A stretch of 18,466 nucleotides of DNA, from IMG/VR virus record IMGVR_UViG_2872164251_000003, positions 1 to 18,466 of that record. One strand, 5' to 3'. The notes beneath the pieces were generated by a model that searched no databases, was not told the DNA's origin, and worked only from the letters and a program-made list of their open reading frames with translations. The DNA is from a virus (taxonomy: Duplodnaviria > Heunggongvirae > Uroviricota > Caudoviricetes). Below, piece by piece: positions 1-17,321 of this stretch (positions are counted from its first letter, which is position 1; the number at the start of each line of letters is the position of its first letter). Position numbers and translations under genes: made by a program.

Positions 1-504
1 TTACTGATAGTGTTTTATGTTCAGATAATGCCCGATGACCTTGTCATGCAGCTCCACCGATTTTGAGAACGACAGTGACTTCCGTCCCAGCCTTGCCAGA
101 TGTTGTCTCAGATTCAGATTATGTCGCTCAATGCGCTGAGTGTAACGCTTGCTGATAACGTGCAGCTTTCCCTTCAGGCGTGATTCATACAGCGGCCAGC
201 CATCCGTCATCCATACCACGACCTCAAAGGCCGACAGCAGGCTCAGAAGACGCTCCAGTGTGGCCAGAGTGCGTTCACCGAAGACGTGCGCCACAACCGT
301 CCTCCGTATCCTGTCATACGCGTAAAACAGCCAGCGCTGACGTGATTTAGCACCGACGTAGCCCCAATGTTCGTCCATTTCAGCGCAGACAATCACATCA
401 CTGCCCGGTTGTATGCGCGAGGTTACCGACTGCGGGCTGAGTTTTTTAAGTGACGTAAAACCGTGTTGAGGCCAACGCCCATAATGCGTGCACTGGCGCG
501 ACAT
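1..504 (-). CDS. insB: IS1 transposase InsB (167 aa, intact)
   Basis: ORF translation [16 protein letters not shown]...[12 protein letters not shown] matches IS1 InsB as recalled; overlaps insA in the -1 frame as in IS1. Confidence 0.9.
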
Positions 505-698
505 CCGACGCCATTCATGGCCATATCAATGATTTTCTGGTGCGTACCGGGCTGAGAGGCGGTGTAAGTGAACTGTAGTTGCCATGTTTTACGGCAATGA
601 GAGCAGAGATAGCGCTGATGTCCGGCAGTGCTTTTGCCGTTACGCACCACGCCTTCAGTAGCGGAGCAGGAAGGACATCTGATGGAAATGGAAGCCAC
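423..698 (-). CDS. insA: IS1 InsA (91 aa)
   Basis: [46 protein letters not shown]... with zinc-finger-like CxxC...CxxC N-terminus typical of IS1 InsA. Confidence 0.9.
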
Positions 699-753
699 GC
701 AAGCACCTTAAAATCACCATCATACACTAAATCAGTAAGTTGGCAGCATTACC

Positions 754-876
754 GCCCAGGGCAATGTTCTGCCTGTTCTGTACGGTGAAATGCGCGTGGG
801 GTCGCGGGTGGTATCTCAGGAGATCAGCACGGCAGACGAAGGGGATGGTGGTCAGGTTGTGGTGATTGGTCGCTGA
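754..876 (+). pseudogene. I: 3-prime remnant of lambda-like tail assembly gene I, truncated by IS1
   Basis: Frame starting at 754 reads AQGNVLPVLYGEMRVGSRVVSQEISTADEGDGGQVVVIGR-stop (TGA 874-876), matching the C-terminus of lambda gpI as recalled; directly precedes J as in lambda; upstream portion replaced by IS1. Confidence 0.6.
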
Positions 877-936
877 TGCAAAATGTTTCATGTGAAACCG
901 CCTGCGGGCGGTTTTGTCGTTTATGGAGCGTGAGGA

Positions 937-3900
937 ATGGGTAAAGGCAGCAGTAAGGGGCATACCCCGCGCGAAGCGAAGGACAACCTGAAATCCACGC
1001 AGTTGCTGAGTGTGATTGATGCCATCAGCGAAGGGCCGGTTGACGGTCCGGTGGATGGATTAAAAAGCGTGCTGCTGAACGGTACGCCGGTCCTGGACAG
1101 CGAGGGGAAGACAAACTTTTCCGGTGTTACGGTGGTGTTCCGCGCCGGCGAGCAGGAGCAGACACCGCCGGAGGGGTTTGAATCTTCCGGCTCAGAGACT
1201 GTGCTGGGTACGGAAGTGAAATACGACACGCCGATCACCCGGACCATCACGTCGGCAAACATTGATCGTCTGCGCCTGACCTTCGGTGTGCAGGCACTGG
1301 TGGAAACCACCTCAAAGGGGGACCGGAATCCGTCGGAAGTCCGCCTGCTGGTTCAGATACAGCGTAACGGTGGCTGGGTGACGGAAAAAGACATCACCAT
1401 TAAGGGCAAAACCACTTCGCAGTATCTGGCCTCGGTGGTGGTGGGTAACCTGCCGCCGCGCCCGTTTAATATCCGGATGCGCAGGATGACACCGGACAGC
1501 ACCACAGACCAGCTGCAGAACAAAACGCTCTGGTCGTCGTACACCGAAATCATCGATGTGAAACAGTGCTACCCGAACACGGCGCTGGTCGGCGTGCAGG
1601 TGGATTCAGAGCAGTTCGGTAACCAGCAGGTGAGTCGCAATTATCATCTTCGCGGGCGCATTCTGCAGGTGCCGTCGAACTATAACCCGCAGACGCGGCA
1701 ATACAGCGGTATCTGGGACGGAACGCTTAAGCCAGCATACAGCAACAACATGGCCTGGTGTCTGTGGGACATGCTCACTCATCCGCGCTACGGCATGGGG
1801 AAACGTCTTGGTGCGGCAGATGTGGACAAATGGGCGCTGTATGTCATCGGCCAGTACTGCGACCAGTCAGTGCCGGACGGATTTGGCGGCACGGAGCCGC
1901 GCATCACCTGTAACGCTTACCTGACCACACAGCGTAAGGCGTGGGATGTTCTCAGTGATTTCTGCTCGGCGATGCGCTGTATGCCGGTATGGAACGGGCA
2001 GACGCTGACGTTCGTGCAGGACCGACCGTCGGATAAAGTGTGGACCTATAACCGCAGTAATGTGGTGATGCCGGATGATGGCGCGCCGTTCCGCTACAGC
2101 TTCAGCGCCCTGAAGGACCGCCATAATGTCGTTGAGGTGAACTGGATTGATCCGGACAACGGTCATGAGACGGCGACAGAGCTTGTGGAGGACACGCAGG
2201 CCATTGTCCGTTACGGTCGTAACGTCACGAAGATGGATGCCTTTGGCTGTACCAGCCGGGGACAGGCGCACCGCGCCGGGCTGTGGCTGATTAAAACGGA
2301 ACTGCTGGAAACGCAGACCGTGGACTTCAGCGTCGGCGCAGAAGGGCTTCGCCATGTACCGGGTGATGTCATTGAAATCTGCGATGATGATTATGCCGGT
2401 ATCAGCACCGGTGGTCGCGTACTGGCGGTGAACAGCCAGACCCGGACGCTGACGCTCGACCGTGAAATCACGCTGCCGTCCTCCGGTACCACGCTGATAA
2501 GCCTGGTTGACGGAAATGGCAATCCGGTCAGCGTGGAGGTTCAGTCCGTCACCGACGGCGTGAAGGTGAAAGTGAGCCGGGTTCCTGACGGCGTTGCAGA
2601 ATACAGCGTGTGGGGGCTGAAGCTGCCGACGCTGCGCCAGCGCCTGTTCCGCTGCGTGAGTATCCGTGAGAACGACGACGGCACGTATGCCATCACCGCC
2701 GTGCAGCATGTGCCGGAAAAAGAGGCCATCGTGGATAACGGGGCACACTTTGACGGTGACCGGCGCGGCACGGTGAATGGTGTCACGCCGCCAGCGGTGC
2801 AGCATCTGACCGCCGAAGTCACCGCAGACAGCGGGGAATATCAGGTGCTGGAGCGATGGGACACGCCGAAGGTGGTGAAGGGTGTGAGCTTCCTGCTTCG
2901 CCTGACCGTGGCAGCGGACGACGGCAGTGAGCGGCTGGTCAGCACAGGCAGGACGACGGAAACCACATACCGCTTCAGGCAGCTGGCGCTGGGGAATTAC
3001 AGTCTGACAGTCCGGGCGGTAAATGCCCGGGGGCAGCAGGGCGATCCGGCGTCGGTATCGTTCCGGATTGCGGCACCGGCAGCGCCTGTCACTATTGAAC
3101 TGATACCGGGGTATTTTCAGATAACGGTGGTCCCGAAACTGGCTGTATATGACCCGACGGTGCAGTTTGAGTTCTGGTTTTCGGAAAAGCGGATTGCGGA
3201 TATCAGGCAGGTTGAAACCAGCGCCCGCTATCTTGGCACGGCGCTGTACTGGATAGCCGCCAGTATCAATATCAGGCCGGGCCATGATTATTATTTTTAC
3301 GTTCGCAGTGTGAACACCGTTGGCAAATCGGCATTTGTGGAGGCCGTCGGTCGGGCGAGCGATTATGCGGAAGGTTATCTGAGTTTTTATAAAGGGTTGA
3401 TCAATAAAACGCATCTCGGCAAGGAGTTGTGGACGCAGATTGATAACGGTCAGCTTGCGCCGGACCTGACTGAAATCAGGACGTCCATTACGAATGTCAG
3501 CAATGAAATCACGCAAACCGTCAATAAAACACTGGAAAATCAGAGTGCTGCAATCCAGCAGATACAGAAAGTTCAGGTTGATACAAATAATAACCTGAAC
3601 AGCATGTGGGCTGTGAAGCTGCAACAGATGAAGGACGGACGCCTTTATATTGCGGGTATCGGTGCCGGTATTGAGAATACGCCAGCAGGAATGCAGAGTC
3701 AGGTGCTGCTGGCGGCAGACAGGATTGCGATGATTAATCCTGCGAATGGCAACACAAAGCCGATGTTTGTTGGTCAGGGCGATCAGATATTCATGAACGA
3801 CGTGTTCCTGAAACGCCTGACGGCTCCGACCATTACCAGCGGCGGTAATCCTCCGGCATTTTCCCTGACACCTGGCGGACGGCTGACGGCGAAAAATGCC

Positions 3901-16058: not shown

Positions 16059-16112
16059 CCTGTTTACCTCTTTCTCAGGAAGTTTAGTCTCCAGGATTCC
16101 CGGGGCGGTTCA

Positions 16113-16549
16113 GTTCTATTTTCCGAATTTGCTGAAGTATGACCCTGATCAGTTCGGTCCGGATTTAATTGAGCAACTAGCTCAATCCGGTAAGTATTCG
16201 CAGGATAACACCAAAGGCGATGCCATGATTGGCGTCAAGCAGCCTTTACCAAAAGCAGTTTTAAGAACTCAGCATGACAAAAATAAAGAAGCAATAAGTA
16301 TCCTGGATTTTGGTGTTATTGATGATGGTGTGACAGATAATTACCAGGCAATACAAAATGCAATAGATGCCGTTGCTTCACTACCCTCCGGCGGGGAGCT
16401 GTTTATCCCTGCGAGCAACCAAGCGGTGGGGTATATTGTTGGATCCACTTTGCTTATTCCTTGCGGTGTTAACATCAGAGGGGTTGGTAAGGCATCGCAA
16501 CTCCGAGCAAAAAGCGGACTTACAGGATCTGTGTTAAGGCTGTCTTATG
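16113..16549 (+). pseudogene. Tailspike middle fragment (continuation after head-binding domain), interrupted by IS1
   Basis: Frame open from the first base after the IS629 end: FYFPNLLKYDPDQFGPDLIEQ...; LKYDPDQ matches the P22 tailspike linker that follows the head-binding domain; frame ends in IS1-encoded stop. Confidence 0.75.
16541..16549. repeat. 9-bp target site duplication TGTCTTATG (left copy) of IS1 copy 2
   Basis: Identical 9-mer TGTCTTATG directly abuts both IS1 termini (16541-16549 and 17322-17330). Confidence 0.9.
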
Positions 16550-16564
16550 GGTAATGACTCCAAC

Positions 16565-17072
16565 TTACTGATAGTGTTTTATGTTCAGATAATGCCCGAT
16601 GACCTTGTCATGCAGCTCCACCGATTTTGAGAACGACAGTGACTTCCGTCCCAGCCTTGCCAGATGTTGTCTCAGATTCAGATTATGTCGCTCAATGCGC
16701 TGAGTGTAACGCTTGCTGATAACGTGCAGCTTTCCCTTCCTTCAGGCGTGATTCATACAGCGGCCAGCCATCCGTCATCCATACCACGACCTCAAAGGCC
16801 GACAGCAGGCTCAGAAGACGCTCCAGTGTGGCCAGAGTGCGTTCACCGAAGACGTGCGCCACAACCGTCCTCCGTATCCTGTCATACGCGTAAAACAGCC
16901 AGCGCTGACGTGATTTAGCACCGACGTAGCCCCAATGTTCGTCCATTTCAGCGCAGACAATCACATCACTGCCCGGTTGTATGCGCGAGGTTACCGACTG
17001 CGGCCTGAGTTTTTTAAGTGACGTAAAACCGTGTTGAGGCCAACGCCCATAATGCGTGCACTGGCGCGACAT
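16565..17072 (-). pseudogene. insB: IS1 insB, frameshifted by 4-bp tandem duplication
   Basis: Copy 2 reads ctttcccttccttcaggcg where copy 1 has ctttcccttcaggcg; the ORF then ends prematurely (…[21 protein letters not shown]) instead of the 167-aa InsB. Confidence 0.75.
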
Positions 17073-17266
17073 CCGACGCCATTCATGGCCATATCAATGA
17101 TTTTCTGGTGCGTACCGGGCTGAGAGGCGGTGTAAGTGAACTGTAGTTGCCATGTTTTACGGCAATGAGAGCAGAGATAGCGCTGATGTCCGGCAGTGCT
17201 TTTGCCGTTACGCACCACGCCTTCAGTAGCGGAGCAGGAAGGACATCTGATGGAAATGGAAGCCAC
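16991..17266 (-). CDS. insA: IS1 InsA (91 aa)
   Basis: Same as copy 1 apart from one substitution (A to G near the C-terminus). Confidence 0.85.
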
Positions 17267-17321
17267 GCAAGCACCTTAAAATCACCATCATACACTAAAT
17301 CAGTAAGTTGGCAGCATTACC

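Follow-up and report, generated by a model that had tools for sequence, protein, structure and literature searches.

Composition of the bracketed locus

The window discussed here is a stretch of 18,466 nucleotides from IMG/VR record IMGVR_UViG_2872164251_000003, a virus of the Caudoviricetes. It contains two copies of the insertion sequence (IS) IS1, one at each side of an interior of 15,796 bp (754-16549), and both copies lie on the minus strand. An earlier note on this DNA had described this pair and its cargo (J, lom, stf, ipaH, and IS629-scrambled podovirus genes) and had proposed that the two copies could delete the interior or move it as a composite unit. A repeat scan, alignment, and Pfam agree that two IS1 copies of the same orientation bracket the 15.8 kb, and the cargo, with podovirus genes of the P22/Sf6 type, is likewise confirmed by Pfam.

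Over its whole length, the window matches CP032513.1 at 100% identity; this record is the chromosome of strain SFL1520 of Shigella flexneri serotype 3b. A locus found through its identical J protein (record 708984-732463) covers window 1-14416 at 100%, and further loci extend the identity across the full window. In the window, a lambdoid ipaH prophage is represented by its right end, and a second remnant, of P22/Sf6 type, follows. Beyond the right edge come, in order, oac, the lambda attachment (att) core, ybhB, and bioA. The coordinates of the features are collected in Table 1.

Table 1. Features of the window (coordinates in nucleotides of the 18,466-nucleotide stretch).
Feature	Position	Strand	Remarks
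IS1 copy 1	1-753	minus	768 bp complete in source genome (locus L002, 9050-9817)
3' remnant (123 bp) of lambdoid tail-assembly gene I	754-876	plus	severed by IS1 copy 1
Tail tip protein J, 1159 aa	937-4416	plus	Pfam
lom (Ail/Lom outer-membrane protein)	4484-5083	plus	Pfam
stf side tail fibre gene	5105-6562	plus	Pfam
DUF4376 protein gene	6513-7136	plus	Pfam
ipaH, 587 aa, type III secretion system effector	7316-9079	minus	LRR and NEL E3 ubiquitin ligase domains; Pfam
Right-arm (P-arm-like) att region of lambdoid prophage	9265-9561		ends in first part of lambda att core (TCAGCTTTTTT)
5'-truncated IS3-family (IS629-type) copy	9562-10529	plus	approximately positions 342-1310 of full element
Inverted block of P22/Sf6-type genes	10530-14802	minus	Pfam
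Tailspike head-binding N-terminus	10530-10831	minus	Pfam Head_binding
gp16	10967-12811	minus	
gp20	12808-14214	minus	
5'-truncated gp7	14224-14757	minus	Pfam P22_gp7
Full IS3-family (IS629-type) element, orfA/orfB	14803-16112	minus	1310 bp; 25-bp inverted repeats
Middle part of Sf6-type tailspike gene	16113-16549	plus	
IS1 copy 2	16550-17321	minus	772 bp = 768 + 4-bp duplication; repeat scan, pairwise alignment, Pfam
C-terminal part of Sf6-type tailspike gene	17322-18466	plus	stop codon 18464-18466; outside bracketed segment

Parts of this locus are already in the literature. In the passages retrieved from Parajuli et al. (2019; PMC6424224), a "phage region 4", or "SHI-O", of SFL1520 is described as Sf6 remnants with an intact oac, and this region and the window are identical DNA. 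The same passages place many transposases upstream of the Sf6-remnant region and call it an IS-rich "recombination hotspot". They give a genome of 4.58 Mb with 355 IS open reading frames (ORFs), of which 152 belong to IS1, the commonest IS, and seven chromosomal ipaH genes. The IS1 pair, the IS1 flanks, the IS629-mediated inversion, and the att-site context worked out here are not detailed in those passages. The locus is thus already published, though only coarsely described, and the arrangement of the pair is ordinary.

Both copies have the features of the IS1 family. They are approximately 768 bp long, have imperfect terminal inverted repeats of approximately 23 bp with the left (IRL) and right (IRR) repeats at the ends of each copy, and encode insA (zinc ribbon and helix-turn-helix) followed by insB' (DDE) in the -1 frame. 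Pfam Zn_ribbon_InsA, HTH_Tnp_IS1, and DDE_Tnp_IS1 match the minus-strand translations of both copies, and the IRL end (GGTAATGCTGCCAACTTACTGAT) is at the right in both. The first 15 nucleotides of copy 1 (its IRR end) fall beyond the window edge; read complete in the source genome, copy 1 has the orientation that the earlier note assumed.

In pairwise alignment, the copies are approximately 99.4% identical and differ by one single-nucleotide polymorphism (G at window 436, C in copy 2) and by a CCTT tandem duplication of 4 bp that copy 2 carries at approximately 16735-16742. The A6C slippery motif TTAAAAAAC is found at position 305 of both. Copy 1 retains an intact insA and insB' along with the A6C frameshift motif. 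In copy 2, the CCTT frameshift cuts InsB' to 126 aa, and the final third of the DDE domain is lost (the Pfam match stops at profile position 78 of 131). The 126-aa InsB' was considered as a unique tag of copy 2 and was rejected, because, besides this locus, eight further sites in two draft S. flexneri assemblies (GCA_000213695.2 and GCA_000268245.1; loci L033-L040) have the same called product. Either this defective IS1 has spread, by trans-mobilization or gene conversion, or the IS1 copies of these assemblies were filled with one consensus.

Separate origins of the two copies

Nine long assemblies (L022-L025 and L027-L031) encode the identical IpaH protein and serve as relatives of the locus. 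Among them are CP066809.1, from a Shigella isolate of PMC8549364, and CP045522.1, which PMC9380665 cites as S. flexneri. Both IS1 copies are absent from all nine and are thus late, lineage-specific arrivals.

Copy 2 is flanked by the 9-bp sequence TGTCTTATG at 16541-16549 and 17322-17330, a target duplication of the length typical of IS1 (9 bp, sometimes 8 bp). The relatives have an empty site with a single TGTCTTATG. Because copy 2 has its own duplication and its site is empty in relatives, it is a simple, recent IS1 transposition into the Sf6-type tailspike gene, as the earlier note had argued from the duplication. The insertion took place in the SFL1520 lineage, and two independent draft contigs, AFGW01000026.1 and AKMX01000030.1, carry copy 2, its frameshift, and the IS629-type inversion described below.

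Copy 1 has no target duplication. Its left flank is CATTTGTTG and its right flank is GCCCAGGGC, whereas copy 2 and the neighbouring IS1 copies a and b each have a 9-bp duplication. This lack points to a later rearrangement and not to a failure to belong to the IS1 family. To the right of copy 1 are the last 123 bp of gene I; to the left are 363 bp that include a DNA-invertase remnant, and then pgl. Gene I is uninterrupted at the copy-1 site in the nine relatives and is intact also in a paralog within the SFL1520 genome. Comparison with K-12 and with FDAARGOS_944, a strain labelled Escherichia coli, shows that the ybhJ-ybhI-ybhH-ybhD-pgl block has an inverted orientation relative to ybhB-bio. 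Because the duplication is missing and this block is inverted, copy 1 marks a rearrangement junction and is the endpoint of at least one inversion. The flank check that the earlier note had suggested for copy 1 therefore found no duplication and led to a junction that the note had not foreseen.

The sequence of events at copy 1 may be outlined as follows. An IS1 in gene I would have become a rearrangement endpoint, so that the J side was joined to the DNA-invertase remnant upstream of pgl and the ybhJ-pgl block was left inverted. In FDAARGOS_944, the invertase remnant is also upstream of pgl, where it adjoins a second, mirror-image ipaH prophage remnant. The junction and the inversion are themselves shown; the mechanism was probably either recombination with a further IS1 in inverted orientation or an intramolecular transposition of IS1. 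A plain adjacent deletion at copy 1 was rejected as the sole event, given the inversion of the ybhJ-pgl block relative to ybhB-bio.

The two neighbouring IS1 copies are to the left of the window (L002 1-9049), where they split ybhI and ybhD, each with a 9-bp duplication (TGAGTAACC and ACTTATTGC). An IS1 in ybhD adjoining pgl is also found in several E. coli genomes.

Composite unit, deletion substrate, or coincidence

The two IS1 copies are read here, with a probability of about 0.85, as the products of two recent events, unrelated to each other, in a double-prophage island that is old and decaying and that occupies the lambda attachment site of SFL1520. Their shared orientation is incidental and the bracketing is coincidental. 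Four IS1 copies are found within 33 kb around the window. When 76-152 IS1 copies are placed at random (a range taken from the 152 IS1 ORFs that PMC6424224 counts in 4.58 Mb), approximately 9-31 pairs of neighbouring IS1 copies in direct orientation and with a spacing of 15.8 kb or less are expected per genome. Since many such pairs are expected in a Shigella genome by chance, this one is unremarkable, and a directly oriented IS1 pair carries no signal by itself.

Some points weigh against this reading. Neither of the expected partner-junction flanks of copy 1, CAACAAATG or GCCCTGGGC, is present at any of the 40 IS1 ends of the loci compared, and the mechanism and extent of the copy-1 rearrangement are thus not established. 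The copy-1 junction is present in one assembly only; the draft contig AFGW01000026.1 begins 56 bp farther right. The missing deletion variants, discussed below, rest on three assemblies only.

A functional Tn9-like composite transposon (IS1-cargo-IS1) that carries ipaH and can move, or has moved, as a unit between replicons would also consist of direct IS1 repeats, as in Tn9 and other known elements. The outer inverted repeats here are sequence-intact, and copy 1 retains insA/insB' and its A6C motif. The outer flanks CATTTGTTG and TGTCTTATG, however, are not a duplication of each other, so the segment as a whole lacks a target duplication. Copy 2 has a duplication of its own and splits a tailspike gene that continues beyond the segment, and its insB is frameshifted. 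The nine relatives hold the interior at the same att-lambda site without either IS1, and the IS1::tailspike fusion ORF occurs only at the SFL1520-type locus (three contigs in the whole collection). Such a transposon is highly improbable, and the composite-unit half of the earlier note's proposal is contradicted by the unmatched flanks, the tailspike gene that crosses copy 2, the IS1-free interior of the relatives, and the frameshifted transposase. There is likewise only a very slight chance that the 15.8-kb block is mobilizable, either by composite transposition with the transposase of copy 1 or of other IS1s, or as an excised, IS1-bearing circle that re-integrates at any other IS1 through homologous recombination. 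If it were, the block would be a route for shuffling chromosomal ipaH effector genes between Shigella chromosomes and plasmids. Misassembly of repeated IS1s in the hybrid nanopore/Illumina assembly, especially at the copy-1 junction, would be favoured by the approximately 100 or more IS1 copies of the genome (PMC6424224), by the presence of the junction in a single assembly, and by the start of AFGW01000026.1 56 bp from it, which leaves the junction unspanned. Yet two independent assemblies also contain copy 2 with its CCTT duplication as well as the IS629 inversion, AFGW01000026.1 ends just where copy 1 would be, as expected of an IS1 there, and 768-bp repeats should be easily spanned by long reads. 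An artefact of this kind is very doubtful.

The remaining alternative is that the pair is an active deletion switch, by which the lineage recurrently loses 754-17321 (ipaH, lom, J) and variants are common in the population. The two 768-bp direct repeats are approximately 99.4% identical and 15.8 kb apart, and recombination between direct repeats is established to yield deletions (PMC8072062). The interior consists of prophage remnants and one of the seven chromosomal ipaH genes (PMC6424224), and is probably dispensable. The region is also deletion-prone, one draft having lost 14232-19623. Against this, all three assemblies with a readable copy 2 are undeleted, the single deletion seen has non-IS endpoints with a 1-bp microhomology, and the predicted junction is found in no complete E. 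coli genome, although genomes without the Sf6 remnant say little. A deletion switch is unlikely, and the two separate IS1 events remain the preferred reading.

The direct 768-bp repeats are still a potential substrate for a RecA-dependent deletion of 16.6 kb, which is textbook-plausible and unobserved. The predicted product would be invertase'-pgl, IS1, and tailspike C-terminus-oac. The deletion would remove one IS1 together with J-lom-stf-ipaH and the scrambled podovirus genes and spare oac, so that the strain would retain this serotype-determining gene and lose one of the seven ipaH effectors encoded on its chromosome. The product would be visible in long contigs only, because nothing shorter than the 768-bp IS1 identifies its junction; assemblies from short reads are interrupted at IS1 and are unable to show it. 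The ORF that runs from copy 2 into the tailspike C-terminus, of 426 aa (17186-18466) or 439 aa (17147-18466), was used as the outside marker. It is present in only three contigs in the whole collection, all undeleted, which gives low power. Oac was dropped as an outside marker, as the cluster representative recovered by homology and the exact SFL1520 protein are one residue apart. A deletion variant of the IS1 x IS1 kind was not found, and 3/3 assemblies with a readable copy 2 retain the segment. A synthetic IS1 x IS1 junction was also compared with 5,426 complete E. coli genomes, and none covers at least 80% of the query; those genomes are without the Sf6 remnant.

One draft, GCA_013858115.1 (L013), has a different deletion. 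It is 100% identical to window 10533-14231 in the SFL1520-type orientation, and position 14231 is joined directly to 19624 with a 1-bp microhomology, so that 5,392 bp (14232-19623) are lost; this being a draft, misassembly is possible. The deletion takes gp7', the full IS629-type copy, IS1 copy 2, the remainder of the tailspike gene, and oac, and loss of O-acetylation (serotype 3b antigen 6) is expected in this isolate. The region thus loses DNA, yet this deletion did not use the IS1 pair and destroyed it. Overall, the earlier note is partly supported. Its deletion half holds formally, as direct-repeat recombination would remove the interior, while the variants it predicted were looked for and none of that kind was seen among the three assemblies with a readable copy 2. 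Its interpretation is right in logic and adds nothing new.

The double-prophage island and its place in Shigella genome decay

The island occupies the lambda attachment site, between ybhC and ybhB, and contains the lambda-like tail genes I-J-lom-stf, with Pfam matches to J, Lom, and the tail fibre N-terminus. The lambda att core GCTTTTTTATACTAA is at window coordinate 19950-19964, and homology to K-12 (ybhB, bioA, bioBFC) resumes exactly there. A P-arm-like sequence of approximately 300 bp is present twice, at 9265-9564 and at 19660-19957 (beyond the window edge and immediately ahead of the real att core), with 89% identity, as expected of tandem prophages at one att site. Farther to the right, at the ybhB/bioA junction (window-equivalent 20503, outside the window), 86 bp are missing compared with K-12 (K-12 807882-807967), and the called ybhB product of 156 aa overlaps bioA.

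FDAARGOS_944 (NZ_CP065613.1) has a complete lambdoid prophage at att-lambda that ends ...I-J-lom-stf-DUF4376-ipaHa-att-ybhB and is 98.1% identical to window 754-9553. In this genome (L021, L045), two mirror-image ipaH prophage regions flank the pgl-ybhC block, with ipaHb upstream of pgl and ipaHa at att-lambda. The strain looks enteroinvasive and Shigella-like, and its version of the island is close to the ancestral state.

CP032513.1 contains a second lambdoid ipaH prophage 475 kb away (1192844-1216323, L001). It differs from window 754 to approximately 8000 at only 2 positions over approximately 7.3 kb and encodes the same J protein. In the relatives, the orthologous locus differs at approximately 17 positions and has a frameshifted J. 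Because the paralog is closer than the orthologs, gene conversion between the paralogous ipaH prophages of SFL1520 is suggested. Their 7-kb direct repeat could drive large rearrangements.

The P22/Sf6-type part of the island is identified by Pfam matches to P22_gp7, Inj_translocase, Head_binding, and Tailspike_C. It is accompanied by two IS3-family copies of the IS629 type. The full element has the approximately 1.3-kb length, the overlapping-frame orfA (HTH_Tnp_1) and orfB (rve), the ends starting TGAACCGCCCCGGG, and the 3-4 bp duplication that characterize this type. Pfam HTH_Tnp_1, HTH_21, and rve match it, and it is 99.5% identical to E. coli elements annotated "IS3 family transposase". 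The specific name is presumably IS629 rather than IS1203. The truncated copy is doubly defective, with orfA absent and orfB frameshifted (window 9598-10487, split into ORFs of 240 and 154 aa by a 1-nucleotide indel compared with the full copy). Its left boundary is ambiguous within 9554-9562.

The scrambling of the podovirus genes by this IS, which the earlier note had recognized, is borne out by comparison with phage-collinear relatives. In the nine relatives, the block between the two inverted IS3-family copies is in the opposite, phage-collinear orientation, with the order gp7'-gp20-gp16-tailspike N-terminus-[IS]-tailspike-oac. The 3-bp GTT duplication of the full IS629-type element is now split between 10530-10532 (reverse complement) and 16113-16115. 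When the block is flipped back and the IS with one GTT, and copy 2 with one TGTCTTATG, are removed, an uninterrupted 623-aa tailspike ORF ending at window 18466 is restored. The inversion is real and lineage-specific, since it is common to the drafts AFGW01000026.1 and AKMX01000030.1; recombination between the two inverted IS629-type copies flipped 10530-14802 in the SFL1520 lineage.

Past the IS629-type insertion, the rest of the tailspike gene and oac have 99.6% identity to positions 14016-16864 of phage Sf6. The ejection-protein genes are mosaic; among phages, Sf101 matches them best, with 93% identity over 43% of the block, and the match to E. coli prophages is 97.6%. The relatives show an ancestral island order that ran from lambdoid ...I-J-lom-stf-ipaH through the truncated IS629-type copy to gp7'-gp20-gp16-tailspike (with the full IS629-type copy), oac, the att core, and ybhB.

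At window 9540-9575, the start of the truncated IS629-type copy coincides exactly with the start of the lambda att core in the lambdoid prophage. The window reads TCAGCTTTTTT joined to TTTTGCGAAGG, while FDAARGOS_944 reads TCAGCTTTTTTATACTAA and the full IS reads TCCGCTTATTTTGCGAAGG; the junction is common to all nine relatives. The deletion of the left part of the Sf6-like prophage therefore ended in the att core, at a core-like site in the IS. It could have been a microhomology-mediated or an aberrant integrase (Int)-mediated event.

Several known systems resemble the SFL1520 pair. RecA-dependent deletion of DNA between direct IS copies is a textbook capacity, with the r-determinant, Tn9, and the pgm locus as classical cases. 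Direct IS1a and IS1b copies flank the r-determinant of plasmid R100/NR1, which undergoes RecA-dependent excision and amplification, and direct IS100 copies flank the Yersinia pestis pgm locus, which is lost in a spontaneous 102-kb deletion. Both resemble the present locus in that direct IS repeats flank a dispensable virulence or accessory segment and form a deletion substrate; their products are observed at measurable frequency, whereas none was seen for the SFL1520 pair. Tn9 and other IS1 composite transposons likewise have direct IS1s with intact terminal repeats around unrelated cargo. Unlike Tn9, the segment here has no duplication of the whole unit, with a duplication on copy 2 and none on copy 1, and the interior is 15.8 kb compared with a cargo of approximately 1 kb. 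In contrast to Tn9-type transposons, the cargo pre-exists in situ in relatives without IS1, and one transposase gene is frameshifted.

For Shigella, deletion between direct IS repeats is restated by Seferbekova et al. (2021; PMC8072062). The IS-driven decay treated there is of the same kind as that at this locus, with IS1 and IS3-family expansion, inversions where IS copies are inverted, deletions where they are direct, and ipaH in prophage and IS debris. The useful outcome is the history of events at the locus, which comprises att-lambda tandem prophages, an IS629-mediated inversion, a simple IS1 insertion, and an IS1 rearrangement junction. The pair itself matters little beyond bookkeeping and is one more instance of Shigella IS-driven rearrangement, with no difference in kind.

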